Shown here piece by piece: positions 4,883 through 63,217 of a stretch of DNA of 64,000 nt. The notes under the pieces are model-generated. The model ran no database searches, had not been told where the DNA came from, and was given only the letters and a program-made list of their open reading frames with translations. The stretch is from the sequence record MK327931.1; one strand, written 5' to 3'. Positions within the stretch are counted from its first letter, which is position 1, and each line of letters starts with the position of its first letter. This DNA comes from Escherichia phage vB_EcoM_G17. The position numbers and the translations under genes were made by a program.

Positions 4883-5278
4883 TTAGTCTCCAACAAAACC
4901 TTGACGTGCAGCATATGATGGTGCACCAGGCTCATTATAGTGTTGTACGCCTTCTTTGTCAATTGTTGGTCCCATACCTTCAGTTCCAAAACAACCTGCA
5001 ATGGCTTCCAACACTTCTTCATCAGCAACTTCAGTACTTTCATCATTATATCGAATGTCAGACAAAATGTCACAGGCTTTTTGTAGTTTATCTACAATTT
5101 CTTTTTGGTCTTCACCAGATTTAATCTTATCAACAATATCAATAAGACATTTGGTAATATCCTTAAGAACATCAACTGCTACAACATCGGATTCAACTTC
5201 AACTGAAAAACTTTCGTCTTCATCTCTTCCGGTAATTTCGTCTAACGCTTCAACTAGTTCACGATAATTATATTGCAT
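4883..5278 (-). CDS. hypothetical acidic protein (131 aa)
   Basis: ORF tightly packed; D/E-rich. Confidence 0.5.
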   Translation of the reverse strand: MQYNYRELVEALDEITGRDEDESFSVEVESDVVAVDVLKDITKCLIDIVDKIKSGEDQKEIVDKLQKACDILSDIRYNDESTEVADEEVLEAIAGCFGTEGMGPTIDKEGVQHYNEPGAPSYAARQGFVGD

Positions 5279-5279
5279 A

Positions 5280-6260
5280 TTATTTGTCTCCTAAAAATTT
5301 CTTGTATTTTTCTTGGAGACTTTCAAAAATATCTTCTACTTCTTCATCAGAATCATCTTCCAAGTCAATGTTACCTTCAGGTGAATCATCTTCTTCACTT
5401 TCATTAACATTTAGTGGGTTATCTCCTAATGCAGTGCCTGGGAATTTTGGTTCAAATTTATGAACACGATTTTCGTTCCCTTCATTATCATAATACTCAG
5501 GTTCTGGACGATTGTCAAGATCTTCATCTACAACACGTCTCCAATAAAATTGATTGCCTTTTGCAATTACAACAAAATGGTCACCTTCAACACCATTAGT
5601 CTTTAGTTGACCATCACGAACGGCATCAGCTTCTGTATCATATGGACCATAATCAGTACTGTTAGATGGTTCTTCATCTTCAGAGATACTTAGATCTGGT
5701 AGAAATTGGGTATCTTTCATTTCTTTATCGGTAGCAGGATTACCCTCTACTGAAAAATCTTCGTCTTCTTCTTCGTTAATACCAGCAAGAGATAGCATAC
5801 GACTAAAATCGAATTCTTCTTCAATAATTTCTTCTTCTTCCTCATCGTCTTCTTCAACTGATTCTAGTTGAGGTTGACCACTAAGGTCAAGAGAAAAATC
5901 TTCTTCACCTTCTACACCTGGTTCTGAAAATTCAGCATCCATACTAACTTCATCTGTGTCAGCACCAAAATCACCAACATCAGCGGAAAGATCATCAACT
6001 GCCGCTGCTAGTGGGTCTTCAACTGAAGTTTCAATTCCACCAATTTCTTCTTCAGCACCAATAGAATCGAGATCTAGTGGAGCAATAGGTGGAAGAGATG
6101 GAGTCATAGACCCCATAGATGGTACTGGAGCGGCAACTACTGGGTCTTGACGTTCAGCTTGACCAGCAAGAGCTAACATACGTGATAGAGTTTCCAAATC
6201 ATCAGATTCTAAACCTGCGATATCGATTTTAACTTGTGCTTCATTAATTTTTTTAGCCAT
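5280..6260 (-). CDS. highly acidic protein (326 aa), D/E-rich low complexity
   Basis: Long ORF; runs such as EEDDEEEEEIIEEE. Confidence 0.6.
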   Translation of the reverse strand: MAKKINEAQVKIDIAGLESDDLETLSRMLALAGQAERQDPVVAAPVPSMGSMTPSLPPIAPLDLDSIGAEEEIGGIETSVEDPLAAAVDDLSADVGDFGADTDEVSMDAEFSEPGVEGEEDFSLDLSGQPQLESVEEDDEEEEEIIEEEFDFSRMLSLAGINEEEDEDFSVEGNPATDKEMKDTQFLPDLSISEDEEPSNSTDYGPYDTEADAVRDGQLKTNGVEGDHFVVIAKGNQFYWRRVVDEDLDNRPEPEYYDNEGNENRVHKFEPKFPGTALGDNPLNVNESEEDDSPEGNIDLEDDSDEEVEDIFESLQEKYKKFLGDK

Positions 6261-12995: not shown

Positions 12996-15659
12996 TTATT
13001 GAGTTTTTTCGATACGGATTGGTACGTAAATGAAGTTAATACTCTTAGTTGGTTGGATTGCAATATCCATCCAAAGTTCATTACGGTCAATACGCTCTGC
13101 GGTATTGTTACTTTCATCACAAACTACTGCGAAGTTATAAAGACCCTGTTGTTGAACAATTTCAGCCAAGAAACTATTAACTACACCACTAAATTCCTGA
13201 CGAGTACTTGGAGTATTCAAACGGAATAGGAATGGTTCGGAAATAATTTCTAGTTGACGACGAATATAAACAACTAAACGAGCAACGTTAACACGACTTA
13301 GTGCAGAAGTTTGATTAGCAGATAGAGTTTTATCTCCATAAACAAGCAAACCACGGTTAGGACGCATTGCAATTGGGTTAATGTTGTTAGTATACATAAC
13401 GTCACGTTGACCTTGGTTATATACTACTGGTTGATATTCACCTTCGCTGTTGATAAAACCAGTACTTGCAGCGTTTGTTACAACACCACGAGTTGTACCA
13501 GCAGGTGGATACCATACATAACTAACACTATCACTATATGCATATGTACGCATTGCAATAGTACTACCAGGAACTGCAACTTCTTCACCATCAACGTTAG
13601 TACTTAGACACCAACCCATATACTGAGCAGCATAATCATAAGCAGTTGTGCGACCAACTGAACCGTTACTTGGTGCATTGTTAGCATTAGTAGCCCATTG
13701 TTGTACAGCACTACCGTTTCCGGTTGGATTCAAACGTGCTGGAACGTCAGTAACAATAAATGCAGTTTCTTTACGATCAGTGTTTAAAGTTACACATTCA
13801 TCAAGTGTTTCAACGTAACCAGGTACACAAATTAGGTTAAAATCAATAAATTCAGAACGAATGTCATCATTACCAATAATAACAGCAGCTAGTGCTTCAA
13901 CTACTAGTTGACGTTGTGCAGCACGACCAAATAGACCAGCACCATCAAGACTTACACCACTAACAACTTCCCATTGACCATTAACCATTTTCTTAACAAC
14001 ACCTTCAGTGTTACCTAGGTCAACAGCAAGCATACCATTTTGATATAATGCCGCAGCAGGAACTTGGCTTGGGAAATTAAAGTCTTGGAAAATCATACCA
14101 TTTAGTGTACTTTGGTCAGTACTGTCAAGTTTAACCCATTCACCATCAACGTTACGATAGAAATCATAACCATCAATGCCTTGAGACAAAGGACAAACCC
14201 AAATTAAACGGTCAGCCGCTGGTTCATCAACTTGTACATATTTGTTTTCTTCTTGTACTAGATCCCATTCATCATTAGCAACATCAGCAACATACATAGT
14301 TACAGTTAGATTATCGGAGTTCCCGAAATCATACCAGAGAGTTCCTTCTTTTGCTACACTACGTGGTACTGAATAACTAACACGGAAGTTATTAACGTTA
14401 ATTAGAGAGTAGTTGTTACTATCTACAGTTAGTTTTTGTAGTTCAGATTCAGCAAAAATATCATCACCACTTTGTGTGATTTTGAAACTGTAACCTTTTG
14501 TATTGGAAACAACTAAACCACCATTAGTTTCACGTTTAAATTTAAAACCATCGTTAATAATTTCAGCATTTGCATTTAGATTATTGATGATAGTTTGGGT
14601 ATTAATAACACCGCCTTGTGGAACTGCTAGTACTTTAACTGATTTATTCAAATAAACAAAAGTCATATAACTATCAGCACCTGCTTGTTCAATAATAGTT
14701 TCACCAAGTGGCAAAGCAGGAGCACTAATTGTTGTTAGTTTTGCACTTTGAATATAGAAAGAGAAACTCTTACTATCTTCATCAAAACGAGATGCGATAT
14801 AACTATTGTTTAGTACACCACTTTTCGCTTCAATTTCTTGGAATGAATTACCAGTATATGCTGGTACAATATTCCAAACTTGAGTTAGGGATGCATAACG
14901 TTTAATAACAAAACGAGTACCAAAATAGTTTGAACCATTTTGGGTGTAACCATCACGAATCCAAATGTTACCTTTTTCTACAGTTGAGCCAACTGGAACT
15001 TTGTTAATTGGTGATAGATAAGTTTCCATTTGCACTAGCCCAGAAGCAGAACGTTTATACATTAGCATCTGACCATTGCTTGGTTTGTAACGTAGAACTA
15101 AATCATCAACATTTAAACCTACTAGACTTACATCTTCAACTTCTTCAGCACTTACAATAGTTACTGGCTTAAGTTGCCAATCATAAAAACTGCTTGGACT
15201 ATCTTTCTTCGCTACATACGCTTCTACTTGTGATTGTGCGGTATCAAACCACAAAGTACCATTGGATACTGGGCCAGTTGGTGCTTCAGCACTTGGTGCT
15301 AGTTGTGCTAGATCGATATCAGCACGAATTACATATGCACGGTTAGTAATGCCTAGATAAGAATATACTGCATGTAGGCCATATTCGTTTAGTTCATCAC
15401 CTTGAACAACAGAACCGTTATTCATTTGAAAAATTGGTGTACCATAGGTATCAAGTGAACTTTTTTGTGATGTTAGAAGCTGTAGTTTTCCAGCGTTTGC
15501 TTTAGTAGTTCCCGCAGCTATTGCACTGCTTCCTGGGACAAGTTTGTCTTCAGCAGTAGCGATTACAAATAGTGGTACAGTGCCAGGAGCAGCAGCGGTA
15601 CTCATACTTTCATCAGTTACTGAAATGGAAACGCCAGGTGAGAGTAGATCTCCTGCCAT
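12996..15659 (-). CDS. contractile tail sheath protein (T4 gp18 family), 887 aa
   Basis: N-terminal LLSPGVSISVTDES matches gp18 LLSPGIELKETT; C-terminal VVCDESNNTAERIDRNEL..IQPTKSINFI matches gp18 C-terminus; GGAGG RBS. Confidence 0.9.
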   Translation of the reverse strand: MAGDLLSPGVSISVTDESMSTAAAPGTVPLFVIATAEDKLVPGSSAIAAGTTKANAGKLQLLTSQKSSLDTYGTPIFQMNNGSVVQGDELNEYGLHAVYSYLGITNRAYVIRADIDLAQLAPSAEAPTGPVSNGTLWFDTAQSQVEAYVAKKDSPSSFYDWQLKPVTIVSAEEVEDVSLVGLNVDDLVLRYKPSNGQMLMYKRSASGLVQMETYLSPINKVPVGSTVEKGNIWIRDGYTQNGSNYFGTRFVIKRYASLTQVWNIVPAYTGNSFQEIEAKSGVLNNSYIASRFDEDSKSFSFYIQSAKLTTISAPALPLGETIIEQAGADSYMTFVYLNKSVKVLAVPQGGVINTQTIINNLNANAEIINDGFKFKRETNGGLVVSNTKGYSFKITQSGDDIFAESELQKLTVDSNNYSLINVNNFRVSYSVPRSVAKEGTLWYDFGNSDNLTVTMYVADVANDEWDLVQEENKYVQVDEPAADRLIWVCPLSQGIDGYDFYRNVDGEWVKLDSTDQSTLNGMIFQDFNFPSQVPAAALYQNGMLAVDLGNTEGVVKKMVNGQWEVVSGVSLDGAGLFGRAAQRQLVVEALAAVIIGNDDIRSEFIDFNLICVPGYVETLDECVTLNTDRKETAFIVTDVPARLNPTGNGSAVQQWATNANNAPSNGSVGRTTAYDYAAQYMGWCLSTNVDGEEVAVPGSTIAMRTYAYSDSVSYVWYPPAGTTRGVVTNAASTGFINSEGEYQPVVYNQGQRDVMYTNNINPIAMRPNRGLLVYGDKTLSANQTSALSRVNVARLVVYIRRQLEIISEPFLFRLNTPSTRQEFSGVVNSFLAEIVQQQGLYNFAVVCDESNNTAERIDRNELWMDIAIQPTKSINFIYVPIRIEKTQ

Positions 15660-56650: not shown

Positions 56651-58090
56651 TTACATATTTTCTTCAGCAAATTCTGCAAGTGGTGAACGAACAACACCTT
56701 CTAGTTCGATGACACGACAACCTGCCCAATCTTTAAACTTCTCAGTTACATATGTCAAACCACTGTTAACAGGACTAATAAACTTACTGTCAATCTGACT
56801 CAAGTTACCCATAATTACTACTTTACAGTTTAATCCTGCTCGTGTCAAGATTGTTTTGGCTTGTGCAGGTGTAATGTTTTGGAATTCATCAACTACTAGA
56901 ATAGTGTTGGTGAATGAACGTCCACGTACAAAGTTTAGTGCTTTAAATTGAATAACATTACGTTTCATAATCTCTTCAATACTACCTTGAGGGTTAGCAT
57001 CATCTTTATGAAGAAACTCTAACGCGTCAATTGCGGCTCCACAGAATGGAATCACTTTTTCTGCTTCTGAACCTGGCAAGAAACCAATATCTTCAAACTG
57101 TGAGTCTTGAGTTTTAGAGAAGATGATTCGGTCGTATTTACGTTTTTCCAGTACTAATTCTAATGCAGTCGCAATCGTAATTAGTGTTTTACCAGTACCA
57201 GCAGAACCTAGCAGTACTGTTAGATGTACATCAGGATCGAGAATACTGTTGATGGCGAGTGCTTGTTGGATATTCTTTGCTTTAATATCCCATACTTTAG
57301 CACGTAAAGCTACTGATTGTCCAATATCTTGGAATACCAAAATATCTTCTGGTGTTAGTGTTCCATCATCTTCCTCAATTGCTGATTGACCTTCGTACAC
57401 AAATAATACGTCTGCATCATCATATAGATAATCCCCGATGCATAGATTTTGTGGGAGCAAATGCTCAATCAAGCTTTTGGAAATGTAATGATACAAACGA
57501 CGACCAACTTGTTCGGATTGAATATTAGTATTGGTTAAGTTGCTATATACTTCCCAAAAATTGATTTCCAAATGGTGTTGACCAATGTGAATCAAATCAC
57601 TATCACCAATAACAATATCATGGCGATAATCTTGTACCTCGACACCATAACTTAGTGCTTTGATACGCATGTTGATATCACGAGTTACCAGTACTGATTC
57701 TGTTGCTAAAGCTACCAGAATGATTTTATCATCAGGTACTGTGCTTTTGAGAAGGGTTTGAACTTTCTCTTCTGAACCTTTAGTACGAATTAGTGCTTCA
57801 GCTTCTTCGTTTGTAATAACAAACAATTTGCTATCAGGATTCATATTGGTATGAACATCAGCAATATTAACACCAGTACTACTAATCTCATCATGTGATG
57901 CATCTGCAATAATTGCTTCAATGTTACGAATAGCAACACGAGCATCGCGTGAAACATCTACATTACGACTCTTAATTGAATCCAATTCTTCCAGTACTGT
58001 AAATGGTAGAATGATTGCAGCACCATCAAAAGCAATAGATGCATTAGGGTCAGATAGTAGTACGTTTGTGTCAATTGTATATTTTTTCAT
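56651..58090 (-). CDS. phoH: PIN-domain/PhoH-like ATPase fusion protein
   Basis: N-terminal PIN (IDTNVLL); Walker A LLGSAGTGKT; Walker B VVDEFQN. Confidence 0.85.
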   Translation of the reverse strand: MKKYTIDTNVLLSDPNASIAFDGAAIILPFTVLEELDSIKSRNVDVSRDARVAIRNIEAIIADASHDEISSTGVNIADVHTNMNPDSKLFVITNEEAEALIRTKGSEEKVQTLLKSTVPDDKIILVALATESVLVTRDINMRIKALSYGVEVQDYRHDIVIGDSDLIHIGQHHLEINFWEVYSNLTNTNIQSEQVGRRLYHYISKSLIEHLLPQNLCIGDYLYDDADVLFVYEGQSAIEEDDGTLTPEDILVFQDIGQSVALRAKVWDIKAKNIQQALAINSILDPDVHLTVLLGSAGTGKTLITIATALELVLEKRKYDRIIFSKTQDSQFEDIGFLPGSEAEKVIPFCGAAIDALEFLHKDDANPQGSIEEIMKRNVIQFKALNFVRGRSFTNTILVVDEFQNITPAQAKTILTRAGLNCKVVIMGNLSQIDSKFISPVNSGLTYVTEKFKDWAGCRVIELEGVVRSPLAEFAEENM

Positions 58091-58150
58091 AAAACATCCT
58101 TGAGTTATGAGTACATCCTTGTACTCGACTAATGTTATTGACTCGGATTA

Positions 58151-58453
58151 TTACATATTTGGTTCGTATTCAACATAGCAACGTGAACCTCGAACCTTTT
58201 CTTCCCAGCACTCCTGGTAAACAAGTTGACCAATTGAAACTGGTTCTCTTGATAGTCCATTACGTACTTCACCATTTTGGGTTTTATACATAAATGAACA
58301 TTTGGACTCGCTACATTGTCCTAAACTAACAACTTCTGCGGTATTGTAGTGAATGTTGGTACGCTTAGTGTTCTCGTGATACTGTCCGAACCAAAGAACT
58401 CCTGCACCTAACAGAACAGTACAAATAAGACTTTTGATGTGTGTTTGAATCAT
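58151..58453 (-). CDS. small secreted or membrane-anchored Cys-containing protein (100 aa)
   Basis: N-terminal hydrophobic segment LICTVLLGAGVLWF; paired cysteines. Confidence 0.5.
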   Translation of the reverse strand: MIQTHIKSLICTVLLGAGVLWFGQYHENTKRTNIHYNTAEVVSLGQCSESKCSFMYKTQNGEVRNGLSREPVSIGQLVYQECWEEKVRGSRCYVEYEPNM

Positions 58454-58770
58454 AATGAGTTAAATCCATTGTTTAAGTATGTTTCAATATTAATTTTACC
58501 AACAGGATTACTACTGTGAACAAAGTACTCAAACGGTTCTTTAATATTATTATCAAACATATAATCAATAAGAAACTTAGCAAAAGAATATCCAGTCTTT
58601 TCGTCTTCGCTCACATCACCCAAGTCATGGTCGAATGATACAAATGCTGGAATTCCATTTTCAATAACATATTCACATGCACTTTTAAAGTCACGACATA
58701 CCACCATATCTTGGTTTGGATAATATAGATTTGCATCACGAATATCATCCAAAAACATTGAGTAAGACAT
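58450..58770 (-). CDS. receiver-like small protein, possibly CPR (cyclic-phosphate processing receiver) domain
   Basis: MFLDDIRD, SFDHDLGD and HSSNPVG recalled as CPR-like; recalled from memory only. Confidence 0.4.
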   Translation of the reverse strand: MSYSMFLDDIRDANLYYPNQDMVVCRDFKSACEYVIENGIPAFVSFDHDLGDVSEDEKTGYSFAKFLIDYMFDNNIKEPFEYFVHSSNPVGKINIETYLNNGFNSL

Positions 58771-58779
58771 GTTAAACTC

Positions 58780-59331
58780 CTATAGATAACTAATTAGTAA
58801 GTTTTCTTTTTGAACCAGATACTCCAATTCTTGTTTTGCTGTACCGATGAAGTTCTGTGTCATAAGATTATTATATCCCGCTTCTCGATTTTGTCCCTTA
58901 GAATAACGAGAAATATGACATAAATTTACACCAGCAACTTCTGCACTTGCATGTTTAGCATTAGTGTATCCATCTCTAATGTGTTTCAACTCGTCATAGG
59001 TTACTTCATAGCTAAAACTGTGACTGTTTGCACCTGGGTAAATTTCAAAAGTTTTGAGTGGTCGAAGATGGGAAACAAAAATATTGTAATCCATTTCTTC
59101 TTGAACTTCACGACGCAACGCATCTTCTAGTGAGATATCAGTACTTTCTACGGTTCCACCACATCCACCAAGAAGACCATCCCATCGTAATTGCAGTAAT
59201 ACTAAATTTACTTCTGGTATATCATTCAACTCATAGTTTTTGTAAGGGTTGCATTTTCTTGCAAAGAAATAACAAAATACAAAATTTGCACGTGTGCCAT
59301 ATTCACCAAAGGGAACTTCTTTAACACTCAT
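58780..59331 (-). CDS. Nudix-like hydrolase
   Basis: Nudix-box-like GGCGGTVESTDISLEDALRREVQEEMD. Confidence 0.5.
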   Translation of the reverse strand: MSVKEVPFGEYGTRANFVFCYFFARKCNPYKNYELNDIPEVNLVLLQLRWDGLLGGCGGTVESTDISLEDALRREVQEEMDYNIFVSHLRPLKTFEIYPGANSHSFSYEVTYDELKHIRDGYTNAKHASAEVAGVNLCHISRYSKGQNREAGYNNLMTQNFIGTAKQELEYLVQKENLLISYL

Positions 59332-60086
59332 TTCATACGTTCCTTAATTATAGTCTCTAGATGCGGTATTGCTTTGGTTGCTGGCTTGATAACTTTTTCA
59401 TTAAACAAAAAATCATTATCATTTTTACGAATGTTAACATTAACACTATAACATGGTAATGCTGCTGCTAATCTCGACCATACCAGTACTGTATCGCTAC
59501 TACCAATTACAATAACTGTATCATTTTCATTAAGAGATTTCAACACATTATTTCGTTCTTCGTAAATTGGTAAGCGAATACCATCAACATAACGATGATA
59601 TTCTCCAATCATTACTACATTTGGTTTAGCAAAAACATCATGTTTTGGTATGTATGGTTCGTATCCGCAGTTAATAACATTATAATCATCGGAATTGATA
59701 CTATAATTTTCAATAACTTCGCACAAGTTTCCATGAAGTTTAAGCTCATGACCACCAATACGAGTATAAAGATCGTCCATGTTAGAAGTCATATGAAGGA
59801 AGCAATCACCATATTGATCTTCTAACGATTTTATAAAATAATGCATTGCATTCGGTTCGCATTGTCCCAATTTTACACGTAATGTATTATAGAAAGAATG
59901 AACAACATGATATTTTGTAGTTAAACTAGCAATGTTACATACATCATTAATTTTAAATGTATCCCACAAACCATCATCAAATCGAAAAGGTTCCATACCA
60001 CTTTCAACAGAAAGTCCTGCACCTGATATAATCAGTAATCGCTTTTTACCTTCATTGCTTATAAATTTTTCTGATATCATATTCAA
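59328..60086 (-). CDS. Sir2 (sirtuin) family protein, no obvious zinc ribbon
   Basis: Rossmann motif GAGLSVESGMEPFRFDDGLW, TSNMDDL, catalytic-His region KLHGNL, VIGSSDTV. Confidence 0.7.
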   Translation of the reverse strand: MNMISEKFISNEGKKRLLIISGAGLSVESGMEPFRFDDGLWDTFKINDVCNIASLTTKYHVVHSFYNTLRVKLGQCEPNAMHYFIKSLEDQYGDCFLHMTSNMDDLYTRIGGHELKLHGNLCEVIENYSINSDDYNVINCGYEPYIPKHDVFAKPNVVMIGEYHRYVDGIRLPIYEERNNVLKSLNENDTVIVIGSSDTVLVWSRLAAALPCYSVNVNIRKNDNDFLFNEKVIKPATKAIPHLETIIKERMK

Positions 60087-60283
60087 TCCTTATAAAAAAC
60101 AATTAAATATATTGATAATAACAGAATGATTCCAATATGATAGGCATACATAAAATTATTATCTTTGTGATAACCATTGGATTTCAAGTCCCTATATAAG
60201 CATTTAGCATTGTTATAAATTACAACAATAGAAAAAACTATAAAAAAACTCAAAACCCATTCATAAATTGTGTATGCCATCAT
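60083..60283 (-). CDS. small membrane protein (66 aa)
   Basis: Two hydrophobic helices. Confidence 0.4.
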   Translation of the reverse strand: MMAYTIYEWVLSFFIVFSIVVIYNNAKCLYRDLKSNGYHKDNNFMYAYHIGIILLLSIYLIVFYKD

Positions 60284-60310
60284 CTATTCTCTCTTATAAT
60301 ATTAGTACTT

Positions 60311-60904
60311 TTAATATTTTAAAACATCAAACTCTTCGCTTACGCTTGTTACATTATCACTAACAATTTTAAAAATTGATTTGATACGTTCGTGTAGTGG
60401 TTTTTTAGATTCGTTCTCAACTTCAATATATGCTTGCATTGCTGCAATTGCATGATATGTCCCACTACCTACTGCGGTAATTCTTGTTTTAGGTTGTAGT
60501 ACTGAAAAGTCTTCTTGAACTTCATAGATTGTATGATTGTGGAGAATGATAAATTGTCCACCTCCTACATCTTGTGATGCATCTCGTGCACCCCATTCTT
60601 CTTTAAACATTTGACGAATAATTGGAATAACTTTAAGAACCAAATATTGTGAAAATGTTTGACTAGCATCTTGTTCAGGTAAATTAAGGTTATAATTTAA
60701 CAACTGACCCATACGAAATGATGTAGTATAACCCAATGCCATTACTTCTTTAGTTCTAGTTAGTCCATCATCATGTAACTTGATAAATTCTTTCTCGAAT
60801 ACCTTTGGCTCAGTTTGAACAGTTTTTGTAAATCCATTGCTTCCTAACTTATCCCCAGCAATAAAAGAACTTACTCCGTCAGTGTGTGCAATAATACAGG
60901 TCAT
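60311..60904 (-). CDS. HslV/proteasome-beta-like Ntn peptidase homolog (about 197 aa from ATG at 60904)
   Basis: MTCIIAHTDGVSSFIAGDKLGSNG aligns to HslV [24 protein letters not shown] with Thr after Met; ITAVGSGTYHAIAA aligns to HslV IAIGSGGPYAQAAA; ATGA overlap with upstream gene. Confidence 0.6.
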   Translation of the reverse strand: MTCIIAHTDGVSSFIAGDKLGSNGFTKTVQTEPKVFEKEFIKLHDDGLTRTKEVMALGYTTSFRMGQLLNYNLNLPEQDASQTFSQYLVLKVIPIIRQMFKEEWGARDASQDVGGGQFIILHNHTIYEVQEDFSVLQPKTRITAVGSGTYHAIAAMQAYIEVENESKKPLHERIKSIFKIVSDNVTSVSEEFDVLKY

Positions 60905-61161
60905 AAAATAGCTCCAATTGCAAATAATGTTGTGTATAAGATATAAATTAGTGCTCCTAACAACATTAGGCACACCAAGTATGAAGTTGATAGTACATAA
61001 TAAATTATTGCTTCGAATTTTGAATTGAACTTCATTGTAGTTGAATCAATAAAGCCATTACGATAATCTTTGTAAATGAAAACTGTTAGAAAAATAACTG
61101 TAGCATACATTACTACAGTAGCATAAAAAATAATAGATGTCAAGTTTTGGATGTTTGTCAT
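60901..61161 (-). CDS. small membrane protein (86 aa)
   Basis: Multiple hydrophobic helices. Confidence 0.5.
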   Translation of the reverse strand: MTNIQNLTSIIFYATVVMYATVIFLTVFIYKDYRNGFIDSTTMKFNSKFEAIIYYVLSTSYLVCLMLLGALIYILYTTLFAIGAIL

Positions 61162-61231
61162 AGTTATATAATCTCAATATAATTAATAACAAAGGAAGTA
61201 CATCATAATCATCCTGTTATTTTAATTATTT

Positions 61232-61855
61232 TTATTGTTTGACTGAACCGTAAAAAACCAGTTCTGGTTTTGTTAATATTACAACATCTTCACCACGAGA
61301 ACGACTAACTCTAAATAGAACTTCTGGTGGGATTCCATTTGCTGCATATAGTGAAAAAAGGAAACCTACCTTTGTTGCCATTTCTTCGGTAAAAGTTGAT
61401 AACTGTCTTACAGACACAAATGAATTATCACCATCAGTAACATTACTTTTAATCGAAATGTTATGAAGACCCAGTACTGAGCGATTTGTCATATATCGCT
61501 TTTCGGGAGATACACTAAAGAATACCACAGTACATGCTGAATTGCAATACCTAGAAACAATTAAATTTATCCCATTGTCTCTAACAAAGTTTGCCATTCG
61601 AATACCTGCATCAAAATCACCACCAGGAGATGTAATTGTGATGGTATCATAGTGTTCTTTATCATACAACTCTATCATACGCTTGAGTGACCCATCTGTA
61701 ATATCTGATATGAAATATACATTTCGGGTTTCAGGATTATACTTTATCACATTTTTACTTTCAATACCAGCACTGGCTGGAAAATTTATTAACAATAGAA
61801 ACATTGCTGCTTGTATCACTTCAAGCCATAGTCTTTTCATATAACAAGTCCTCAA
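61232..61855 (-). CDS. secreted ClpP/S49-like serine-protease-fold protein
   Basis: Signal peptide LLLINFPASAG; ITITSPGGDFDAGIRMANFV resembles ClpP INSPGG..AG motif; candidate Ser in CNSAC. Confidence 0.5.
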   Translation of the reverse strand: MRTCYMKRLWLEVIQAAMFLLLINFPASAGIESKNVIKYNPETRNVYFISDITDGSLKRMIELYDKEHYDTITITSPGGDFDAGIRMANFVRDNGINLIVSRYCNSACTVVFFSVSPEKRYMTNRSVLGLHNISIKSNVTDGDNSFVSVRQLSTFTEEMATKVGFLFSLYAANGIPPEVLFRVSRSRGEDVVILTKPELVFYGSVKQ

Positions 61856-62065
61856 TTTTGTTTAGGAAGATATAAATAATATAGTACTTAAACACTTAAG
61901 TCAAACTTTTTCTGTACTTAACTCAAATTTTTAAAAATAAAACTTAAGGTGTACAGTTTATAACAGATCATATCATACCACTGATGTTTTGTCAACTAGT
62001 TCATGGTGCATCTGATGTAAAAAACAAATATATTTCATACTTATATTTAAAAAAGGAAATAAAAT

Positions 62066-62443
62066 ATGAAAGCTATCGCAGCACAAGGTAAACTACCATT
62101 CAATATCGGCGGGTTTTGTGTAACCGCAGCTAATATAAACGGTGAATTGAAATATAACTTGAACATCTTTAATCAACGTTCTAGTTGTGTTTACGATCTC
62201 ATTGATACTGATTTTAATGTTTATCGTTTTGTAACTATCACTAGTTATGATAAAGATAAAATTAGATTAGATGCATCTAAAACAGCATTGGAAATTGCAC
62301 CAACTCTAGCCAAAAATACTTTTTGTATTAAGATTGACGATAGTGCATTTGCTGAATCATTCCAGTTTCATAAAATTAAATTGAGTACTGGGGCGATGAA
62401 ATATCACCCTTGGGATTTGTATTATTGCAACCTCCCAGGTTAA
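62066..62443 (+). CDS. hypothetical protein (125 aa), the only convincing plus-strand gene
   Basis: AAGGAA RBS 9 nt upstream of ATG; followed by bidirectional terminator. Confidence 0.5.
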   Translation: MKAIAAQGKLPFNIGGFCVTAANINGELKYNLNIFNQRSSCVYDLIDTDFNVYRFVTITSYDKDKIRLDASKTALEIAPTLAKNTFCIKIDDSAFAESFQFHKIKLSTGAMKYHPWDLYYCNLPG

Positions 62444-62474
62444 CAAAAAAGGAGCCTTGTGGCTCCTTTTTTTA
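62444..62474. terminator. bidirectional rho-independent terminator
   Basis: AAAAAA-GGAGCC-TTGT-GGCTCC-TTTTTTT between convergent genes. Confidence 0.7.
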
Positions 62475-62729
62475 TTCTACAGTATTAAGCTTCTGACAAA
62501 TCATATCAGCTTCTACTCGGTCTTTATAATAAATGGTAAATCCAAATCTACTTGTTACCCTTTTCTCACTACGGTGTATACAGTTTACAATATAGTACTT
62601 ATTATTTTGTGCAGAAAAACGAACTTCATAATTTCGAAAAGAAGTATTAGGTTCATCCATAGCAACTATATATAACATAAAAATAAAAAACACTGTTATT
62701 AGAAAAGCAATAATAATTATTACTGTCAT
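62472..62729 (-). CDS. small protein with N-terminal TM helix (85 aa)
   Basis: MTVIIIIAFLITVFFIFMLYIVAM; 4-nt overlap with dCMP deaminase gene. Confidence 0.45.
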   Translation of the reverse strand: MTVIIIIAFLITVFFIFMLYIVAMDEPNTSFRNYEVRFSAQNNKYYIVNCIHRSEKRVTSRFGFTIYYKDRVEADMICQKLNTVE

Positions 62730-63217
62730 TTATCAAGACCCTTATCATAAATGCAATTAACAATAATTCCAGCATCTTCCAGTACTTTAATAGCTTCTGG
62801 TGGTGTACGAGGATAATTTTTGAGATAAATTACACGTGAAATCCCACTACCTGCGATCAACTTAGAACAAGTATAACATGGTTGTAGTGTTGTGTAAAGA
62901 GTAGCACCTTGACGTTCAGTAGGAGAACTATAGAGTAAAGCGTTCATTTCAGCATGGATTTCATGAATATTACTCCACTCATGATGTTCATGCTTTGCTT
63001 CATCACTAACCCAGTCTTGAAAACGTCCATCATTGACTAAGTGTTGATTCACATCACAACAATTTGGTTGTTTTGATGGAGTACCATTGTATCCAGTACT
63101 CAATACTCGGTTATTTTTAACAATAACACAACCAACTTTTTGTGAAATACATTTACTTTCCTCAGCAACTACTTCTGCTATCTTCAACCAAGTCGTATGT
63201 TTCATTATAAGCTCCAA
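62726..63217 (-). CDS. cd: dCMP deaminase (T4 cd-like)
   Basis: HAEMNAL and PCYTCSKLI zinc motifs; N-terminal AEVVAEESKC..KVGCVIVKNNRVLSTGYNG matches T4 Cd. Confidence 0.85.
   Translation of the reverse strand: MELIMKHTTWLKIAEVVAEESKCISQKVGCVIVKNNRVLSTGYNGTPSKQPNCCDVNQHLVNDGRFQDWVSDEAKHEHHEWSNIHEIHAEMNALLYSSPTERQGATLYTTLQPCYTCSKLIAGSGISRVIYLKNYPRTPPEAIKVLEDAGIIVNCIYDKGLDK

Follow-up and report, generated by a model that had tools for sequence, protein, structure and literature searches.

HslV-like and putatively exported ClpP-like peptidase genes at the head of an auxiliary gene block in Asteriusvirus jumbo phages

Among the peptidases of the proteasome type, HslV (ClpQ) has a partner gene, hslU, and a very short pore loop, whereas the pore loop of BPH, which is independent of an unfoldase, is long and acidic (PMC8665760). 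Proteasome homologs associated with phages, namely PPH, AAH and CPH, were described by Fuchs, Alva and Lupas in 2021; their gene context is uninformative, and no co-occurring AAA+ partner is evident (PMC8665760). A paper on a jumbo-phage genome had also remarked on HslV genes that occur without HslU (PMC7823757). Here we analyze a stretch of 64,000 nucleotides (nt) from Escherichia phage vB_EcoM_G17 (sequence record MK327931.1; below, the window), an Asteriusvirus jumbo coliphage, in which genes for a 197-amino acid (aa) HslV-like protein, an 86-aa membrane protein and a 202-aa ClpP-like protein stand side by side.

We favor, with moderate confidence, the view that the HslV-like and ClpP-like proteins are two separate accessory peptidases, absent from the virion, whose genes head a co-oriented auxiliary block that is likely transcribed by the host RNA polymerase, and that their adjacency is a feature of the lineage rather than the mark of a two-protease machine. 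A preceding sequence-only reading had singled out the same three adjacent open reading frames (ORFs); all are present on the minus strand, at essentially the positions that it assigned. That observation is correct and lies well above chance, and the interpretation offered with it holds in part. Public records already carry annotations for both genes, and unfoldase-free proteasome homologs of phages have been in the literature since 2021 (PMC8665760).

Fold, family and active site of the HslV-like protein

The HslV-like protein matches the PHROG family phrog_1040 ("peptidase HslV family") over residues 1-196 (E 4e-24, 86.7 bits). A single-sequence search of the PDB gave only noise (recoverin, E 0.17), so that a family profile was required; built from 35 diverse homologs, this profile retrieves HslV as the best match (1.4e-7), followed by proteasome beta subunits and BPH. 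Alignment to E. coli HslV with hhalign (95.5% probability, residues 1-170) brings Thr1, Asp17, Lys33 and the GSG motif into register. Moreover, the AlphaFold model of the protein is confident (predicted local distance difference test, pLDDT, 92.6); its top Foldseek matches in the PDB are HslV (E 6e-10) and BPH (TM-score 0.69-0.73), and among 780 PDB matches at E <= 1e-3 the foremost are HslV, BPH and proteasome beta, which places it within the alpha-beta-beta-alpha N-terminal nucleophile (Ntn) fold of S1-S11 strands and H1-H4 helices.

Among the 35 homologs, M1, T2, C3, D18, K34, G146 and G148 are invariant and G58 is at least 90% conserved, which in mature numbering gives Thr1, Asp17, Lys33, the oxyanion Gly and the G-x-G of the GSG loop, i.e., the full proteasome-type constellation. 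The Cys next to the catalytic Thr is thus part of the invariant set, and cellular members of the family likewise begin with MTC. On the combined strength of alignment and model, the protein is predicted to be a proteasome/HslV-type N-terminal-Thr hydrolase with an intact catalytic constellation. The kinship to HslV proposed in the sequence-only reading is therefore upheld by the phrog_1040 match, the PDB profile, hhalign and Foldseek alike; the Thr/Lys/Gly constellation on which that proposal had been staked survives alignment intact, and structure prediction together with active-site mapping, both carried out here, gave a confident Ntn-fold model with the complete catalytic set.

The family is too divergent for the Pfam Proteasome model, and PF00227 gives no match to the protein at E <= 0.1; few family members have a precomputed PF00227 match. 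The NCBIfam HslV equivalog models TIGR03692 and NF003964 reach 18.9 and 19.9 bits, respectively, versus cut-offs of 157.75 and 137, and are thus missed by more than 115 bits. At the level of sequence, then, the protein is not an HslV ortholog. HslV is its closest solved relative by sequence, at ~16-20% identity, and the two proteins share the fold, a similar size, the aligned Asp17, Lys33, oxyanion Gly and GSG, and an N-terminal Thr exposed by removal of Met1 (predicted for the phage protein). They differ in several respects. HslV has Thr2 where the phage family has an invariant Cys2. The loop that follows helix H2 (residues 84-103 of the model) is very short in HslV, whereas it comprises 12-20 residues and is net acidic throughout the HslV-like family. 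The position of HslV Lys28 is not conserved and is hydrophobic in the family consensus (hhalign), and, in the Asteriusvirus-type clade, Lys33 is followed by a beta-hairpin extension of ~20 residues that HslV lacks. HslV forms a dodecamer of two hexameric rings that the C-terminal tails of HslU activate; the long loop and the missing Lys28 equivalent point away from such an arrangement in the phage protein. With BPH (5OVS, 5OVT, 5OVU), a stand-alone enzyme with no known unfoldase, the phage protein shares the long acidic pore loop and its highest TM-scores, whereas the sequence similarity is weaker than that to HslV (profile E ~3e-3); BPH is a double heptameric ring, whereas the phage protein is known from its sequence and a monomer model.

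We consider it very unlikely that the protein is something other than a protease, i.e., a transpeptidase or ligase similar to connectase, or a catalytically silent scaffold. Connectase is a proteasome homolog whose fold supports ligation (PMC8665760), the only Pfam signal in the phage protein is a sub-threshold one to the connectase N-terminal domain (E 0.088), and Cys2, invariant beside Thr1, is without explanation. However, the connectase match amounts to 12.8 bits, versus a threshold of 26.8, HslV, BPH and proteasome beta are all much closer, and the connectase-type helical insertion between S3 and S4 is missing. A silent scaffold, for its part, is unlikely because the complete Thr/Asp/Lys/Gly set is invariant.

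Spread of the HslV-like family and the missing unfoldase

The HslV-like family is very large and dominated by phages, and it comprises 4,543 clusters at E <= 1e-3. Its genes are found in 197 phage records, including T5-like Epseptimavirus, Aeromonas and Vibrio phages, Xanthomonas phage XacN1, Salicola phage SCTP-2 and Geobacillus phage E3, as well as in 373 IMG/VR contigs, and there are 387 matches in bacterial genomes, mostly in Azospirillum, other Alphaproteobacteria and Polyangiaceae. Judging by distribution and size, the protein most likely belongs to the AAH group of Fuchs et al., which is defined by compact group I homologs of ~180 aa with helices H1-H4 from Alphaproteobacteria, Actinobacteria and many phages, with phage-borne transfer into Firmicutes. 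The size of 197 aa, the helices and the alphaproteobacterial and phage distribution agree with this definition, and no Actinobacteria are found among the best 80 cellular loci. Like AAH, PPH and CPH in general, the protein is a phage-borne group I homolog with an intact triad, no propeptide and no AAA+ partner (PMC8665760). Membership in PPH is excluded, PPH being ~140 aa long and devoid of H2, which the 197-aa protein possesses.

Several members of the family depart from the common pattern. In Aeromonas phage 2L372X (L006), two adjacent genes, one at 5001..5552 and the other across the record origin, are both annotated "peptidase HslV family", and this pair could form a hetero-oligomeric ring. 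Members of 266-330 aa carry a C-terminal extension (P0053, P0254-P0264 and P0274; e.g., Vibrio phage 166E36-1, 327 aa). A second "MTCII" start in L001 and L012 was dismissed as a chance ORF of 19 codons.

No HslU-like gene was found in the neighborhood of the HslV-like gene of the window, the complete genome not having been read gene by gene. A tblastn search with E. coli HslU matches only 4 Escherichia phage records, versus more than 31 Asteriusvirus-type Escherichia records, so the lack of a nearby HslU-like ATPase, which had been pointed out before, extends to the clade in general. HslU homologs are found in Erwinia Ea35-70-like (Ea35-70, Simmy50 and Caitlin) and Salmonella SPAsTU-like jumbo phages. 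Furthermore, unbiased clustering of the neighbors of the HslV-like gene at 81 phage loci revealed no recurrent AAA+ gene; the neighbors differ by lineage and include an HD-domain protein, NAD-ligase, Thg1, PhoH, and Sir2/Nudix. In the more distant phages, the HslV-like gene tends to lie near PhoH, dCMP deaminase or NAPRTase. No universal partner emerged at cellular HslV-like loci either, a weak negative given that the simple ORF caller performs poorly in high-GC genomes (38 of the 80 loci called).

Given that the phage encodes no HslU detectable by tblastn, the HslV-like protein might borrow HslU from the host, either forming a hybrid ATP-dependent protease or titrating HslU away from the host HslV and thereby redirecting host proteolysis. 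The main hosts (Escherichia, Salmonella, Aeromonas, Vibrio and Xanthomonas) all have HslU as far as is known, HslV is the closest solved relative by sequence, and Thr1, Asp17, Lys33 and the MT start are identical in the two proteins. We regard this possibility as doubtful: the scores against the equivalog models, the long acidic loop after H2 where that of HslV is short, the hairpin insertion after Lys33 in this clade, and the best TM-scores, which go to BPH, all argue against it, as does the occurrence of the family on bacterial chromosomes with no sign of a dedicated ATPase. The hydrophobic residue at the position of HslV Lys28 points in the same direction, provided that Lys28 contacts the C terminus of HslU, a role for which a literature search found no confirmation.

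Under the reading that we prefer, namely a stand-alone accessory peptidase, the HslV-like protein would be made in the cytoplasm, where Met1 would be clipped off by the host methionine aminopeptidase, leaving Thr1 at the N-terminus; a cytoplasmic location is expected because removal of Met takes place there and because the protein lacks a signal peptide. Thr1, Asp17, Lys33 and the Gly/GSG elements would then form a complete proteasome-type active site, and the protein would assemble, without a phage-encoded unfoldase, into a ring-shaped, self-compartmentalized peptidase. Such a ring would be closer to BPH or an uncapped 20S proteasome than to HslVU and could act on peptides or unfolded proteins during infection.

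The ClpP-like protein and its predicted export

The ClpP-like protein matches phrog_26024 ("protease") with E 4e-119, and its score against the Pfam CLP_protease model (PF00574), 17.4 bits, lies below the gathering cut-off of 20.2. It adopts the ClpP/crotonase fold, with ClpP as the nearest structural neighbor. The N-terminus consists of MKR, a hydrophobic stretch and P-A-S-A followed by G at the predicted cleavage site, and the SPGG motif is present. Only 13 close relatives were found, whereas an exhaustive hidden Markov model (HMM) search yields 1,870 representatives at E <= 1e-3. Among 20 full-length relatives, S71, G73, G74, C99, S101, C103, H126, N127, Y165, G169 and P171 are invariant, and two of these residues, Ser101 and His126, align with ClpP Ser97 and His122. 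A CxSxC motif is seen in all 28 close members and in 133 of 134 distant ones, SxGG in all, and the His in 120 of the 134 distant members; these distant relatives are mostly 230-300 aa long, and most begin with a signal peptide or a lipoprotein-like N-terminus. Conservation of the signal peptide extends to all members of the exported ClpP-like family.

These observations sustain the earlier recognition of a ClpP fold with a signal peptide and the SPGG motif: the Ser and His aligned to the catalytic residues of ClpP are retained, and the family into which the SPGG protein falls is a ClpP-fold one with both residues kept. The N-terminal signal and the invariant Cys pair are what would be expected of a periplasmic enzyme that is exported by Sec and contains a disulfide. 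In the mechanism that we propose, the protein, freed of its signal peptide, would work as a Ser/His peptidase in the periplasm, where its two invariant Cys are probably oxidized.

Compared with ClpP (S14), a cytoplasmic tetradecamer that works with an ATPase of the ClpX/ClpA type, the phage protein is predicted to be exported, and, as a periplasmic protein, it could have no AAA+ partner of the kind that ClpP has. The third residue of the ClpP triad, Asp, is not conserved in the family, in which an invariant Cys pair flanks the Ser; furthermore, the handle region of ClpP is not confidently modeled. NfeD (1510-N) and SppA, ClpP-fold peptidases of the membrane or facing the periplasm, employ a Ser-Lys dyad, whereas in the ClpP-like family (20 members) no Lys is invariant but a His is; unlike NfeD and SppA, the phage protein is also devoid of membrane or OB domains. 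The members of phrog_1827 resemble it as orphan ClpP-fold genes in auxiliary regions of large virulent phages, but they have neither a signal peptide nor CxSxC, and the protein of the window has no match to phrog_1827. The exported ClpP-fold CxSxC family is large and mostly bacterial and appears to be uncharacterized; in a scan of ten of its members, no Pfam model matched at threshold.

The labels of the ClpP-like gene in public records conflict and include "nudix hydrolase", "head maturation protease" and "ATP-dependent Clp protease proteolytic subunit" (OQ708376, PP777464, OQ718158 and PQ471516). In the mass spectrometry of the phAPEC6 virion (62 proteins), both gp345c and gp346c, the HslV-like and ClpP-like proteins of that phage, are absent, whereas gp341c (PhoH-like) and gp347, which flank them, are present, and gp227c is the prohead protease. 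Both proteins are therefore taken to be non-structural. A role of the ClpP-like protein in head maturation is suggested by the label in some GenBank records and by a weak match to an NCBIfam ClpP-related head-maturation domain (20.5 bits versus a cut-off of 120). We find this role scarcely credible: apart from the virion data for gp346c and gp227c, the signal peptide conserved throughout the family, the place of the gene in an auxiliary block behind a sigma-70-like promoter, and the mostly bacterial, exported wider family all speak against it.

A third protease-fold gene is encoded nearby in L001 at 13126..13821, ~3.3 kb upstream of the exported ClpP-like gene and ~1.1 kb past the right end of the window. 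Its product, PBECO4 gp105, is a cytoplasmic ClpP homolog (PF00574, 141 bits). The label "head maturation protease" that gp105 carries may be wrong, given that the prohead protease of phAPEC6 is gp227c and that there is no virion protein between gp347 and gp549.

Gene order, transcription and significance of the locus

Positions 58000-63000 of the window, the 5 kb searched, are 100% identical to phages Sharanji and phAPEC6, 99.4% identical to PBECO4 (genus Asteriusvirus, ~350-kb jumbo myoviruses) and 93% identical to 121Q. The features of the locus are collected in Table 1.

Table 1. Genes, catalytic codons and putative promoters of the locus (window coordinates)
Feature	Position	Strand	Basis or remark
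HslV/proteasome-like N-terminal-threonine peptidase gene, 197 aa (phAPEC6 gp345c, PBECO4 gp096)	60311..60904	minus	phrog_1040, residues, model, Foldseek
HslV-like catalytic codons	Thr 60901-60899; Asp17 60853-60851; Lys33 60805-60803; G-S-G 60469-60461	minus	
86-aa ORF, two predicted membrane segments	60901..61161	minus	conserved in 35 phage records
Exported ClpP-fold serine peptidase gene (predicted), 202 aa (phAPEC6 gp346c, PBECO4 gp097)	61232..61840	minus	
ClpP-like signal peptide, ~residues 1-24	61840-61769	minus	predicted cleavage between A-S-A and G
ClpP-like catalytic codons	Ser101 61540-61538; His126 61465-61463	minus	Ser flanked by C99 and C103
Sigma-70-like promoter TTGACT-17-TATTAT (putative)	61876..61904	minus	consensus match and conservation
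Second, stronger sigma-70-like match TTGACA-17-TG-TATGAT	61967..61995	minus	11/12 positions and extended -10
66-aa ORF, two predicted membrane segments, directly downstream of the HslV-like gene	60083..60283	minus	
Sir2	59328-60080	minus	downstream block
Nudix	58780-59331	minus	downstream block
cREC_REC	58450-58770	minus	downstream block
100-aa protein	58151-58453	minus	downstream block
PIN-PhoH	56651-58090	minus	downstream block

The start of the HslV-like gene is an ATG (MTCIIAH...), and the 220-aa extension to a GTG given in the ORF list is used by no annotated record. The ClpP-like gene starts at the ATG at 61840, preceded by a GAGGA ribosome-binding site, rather than at the TTG at 61855. 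The 86-aa ORF ends in a TGA that shares bases with the HslV-like start codon (ATGA), and it contains a GGAG 7 nt 5' of that start codon. The description of the 86-aa product as a small polytopic membrane protein holds as far as the membrane ORF itself is concerned, but its two predicted hydrophobic segments make a hairpin rather than a truly polytopic protein. The stop of the 66-aa ORF precedes the Sir2 ATG at 60080 by 2 nt, and L009 and EJP2 have a 63-aa homolog of it at the equivalent place. In RefSeq PBECO4, gp096 is labeled "peptidase HslV family" and gp097 "protease", and the 86-aa membrane ORF is without annotation; in 121Q, the ClpP-like, 86-aa and HslV-like genes are genes 473, 474 and 475, respectively, and gene 475 carries the label "peptidase HslV family".

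The sigma-70-like promoter lies ~35 nt upstream of the ClpP-like start codon, and 121Q, L008 and L009 preserve both its -35 element and the sequence context upstream; the second match is not conserved in divergent relatives. The genes downstream (56651..60080) are tightly packed in one orientation. The conserved promoter together with this compact, co-oriented arrangement suggests that the block is transcribed early, and probably from this promoter, by the host RNA polymerase. Two near-identical 12-mers, TTTGAGTTAAGT and TTTGACTTAAGT, 22 nt apart on the minus strand at 61894..61928, overlap the conserved -35 element, and both recur in 121Q. Across the window, 5 matches to the motif GTTTGACTTAAGT were counted versus 3.8 expected, which is no enrichment, and the idea of a promoter class was dropped. 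Next to the block, the divergent 125-aa gene at 62066..62443 on the plus strand corresponds to phAPEC6 gp347, a virion protein with 75% sequence coverage in published mass spectrometry; gp347 is a structural gene embedded among auxiliary genes.

The order ClpP-like, 86-aa, HslV-like, small membrane ORF, Sir2, Nudix, cREC, 100-aa, PIN-PhoH is kept in L008 and L009 and persists down to ~50% identity of the ClpP-like protein. An arrangement that had been called unusual for this type of phage thus turns out to be the norm of the clade, with annotation in RefSeq for PBECO4 and 121Q. The 86-aa membrane protein is conserved in 35 phage records at 38-100% identity, and the ATGA overlap is kept in PBECO4, 121Q, L008 and L009 and missing from EJP2 and the 7t3-like phages.

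The two peptidase genes differ in their distribution. Phage records with the ClpP-like gene number 49 (Asteriusvirus, RaK2/K64-1 and XaC1), versus 197 with the HslV-like gene. In the syntenic region of RaK2 (L010), NMNAT, NAMPT and Sir2 come after the ClpP-like gene, which has no HslV-like neighbor, and in EJP2 (L011) the two peptidase genes lie ~5 kb apart with genes for the salvage of nicotinamide adenine dinucleotide (NAD) between them. In both phages, the NAD-salvage genes, NMNAT and NAMPT, are inserted in the block of Sir2, Nudix, cREC_REC, 100-aa and PIN-PhoH genes. In the 7t3-like phages (L013-L015), the HslV-like gene is present, but a search of 7 kb around it shows no ClpP-like gene. 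When 80 IMG/VR loci were searched with HMMs for ClpP-superfamily ORFs over a range of 7 kb, such ORFs proved to be present at only ~9 of 81 HslV-like loci. A general pairing of the two genes is rejected, adjacency being confined to the Asteriusvirus-type clade and the L002/L004 type. Similarly rejected are small membrane proteins as general neighbors of the HslV-like gene, which outside the clade are found at 1 of 69 and 3 of 70 loci, versus a background of 4.8%.

Taken together, the unequal distributions, the arrangements in RaK2, EJP2 and the 7t3-like phages, the rarity of pairing and the two different cellular compartments indicate that the peptidases are most likely accessory enzymes that work independently and have a lineage-specific gene block in common; the two-protease system implied in the sequence-only reading is thus not supported.

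It is unlikely, in our estimate, that the three genes form a single cassette in which the 86-aa membrane protein links or regulates the periplasmic ClpP-fold and cytoplasmic HslV-like peptidases, for example by tethering the ring or relaying a signal. The conserved order of the trio, the ATGA overlap, which implies that translation of the HslV-like gene is coupled to that of the 86-aa ORF, and the second small membrane ORF downstream would all suit such a cassette, and a membrane protein is also encoded immediately upstream of the HslV-like gene in the T5-like phage S132. Moreover, in L002 (9107..9757) and L004 (9103..9933), contigs of 87 kb and 62 kb from unrelated smaller phages, a ClpP-superfamily gene stands directly upstream of the HslV-like gene, between it and PhoH. 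However, these neighbors are members of a different, cytoplasmic subfamily, phrog_1827 ("ATP-dependent protease"), which is found in 1,577 phage records, including T5-like phages whose HslV-like gene lies ~27 kb away. The unequal spread of the two genes, their separation in EJP2 along with loss of the ATGA overlap, the RaK2 and 7t3-like arrangements, and the background-level occurrence of membrane ORFs elsewhere all count against a cassette as well. Less probable again is a scheme in which the HslV-like ring docks on host HslU or another host AAA+ ATPase and retargets ATP-dependent degradation to host regulators or defense proteins, with the 86-aa protein localizing or gating the complex at the inner membrane; if true, this would be the first demonstrated viral takeover of a bacterial proteasome-type machine.

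Several points weigh against the reading of two independent peptidases that we favor. Our literature searches turned up no biochemical data on the two proteins or on other members of their families, no experiments with HslV-like proteins of phages, and no report of a substrate or role for any phage HslV-like or non-structural ClpP-like protein. On the targeted proteolysis of host or defense factors suggested in the sequence-only reading, the analysis yielded evidence in neither direction. Independence from host HslU is deduced from the loop length and the missing Lys at the HslV Lys28 position, and the AAH assignment from distribution and size rather than from direct sequence comparison with AAH references. 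In the ClpP-like protein, the equivalent of ClpP Asp171 is variable (D, N, E or K among close homologs), and the model is confident in the core only (mean pLDDT 66). Finally, with L002 and L004 carrying a ClpP-like gene just ahead of the HslV-like one, and with the trio kept to ~50% identity together with its ATGA overlap, a functional link is conceivable.

Orphan peptidases of the proteasome and ClpP types are common in large virulent phages, with thousands of HslV-like members and more than 1,500 records of non-structural ClpP-like proteins. The exported CxSxC ClpP-fold family may merit a description of its own. Given that the clade infects E. coli K-12, the activity of the two enzymes, their need for HslU and their substrates are directly testable. 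Speculative candidate roles for a periplasmic ClpP-fold peptidase include receptor removal, superinfection exclusion and lysis timing. If either enzyme targets defense or stress-response proteins, it would add a proteolytic arm to the known counter-defense of phages.

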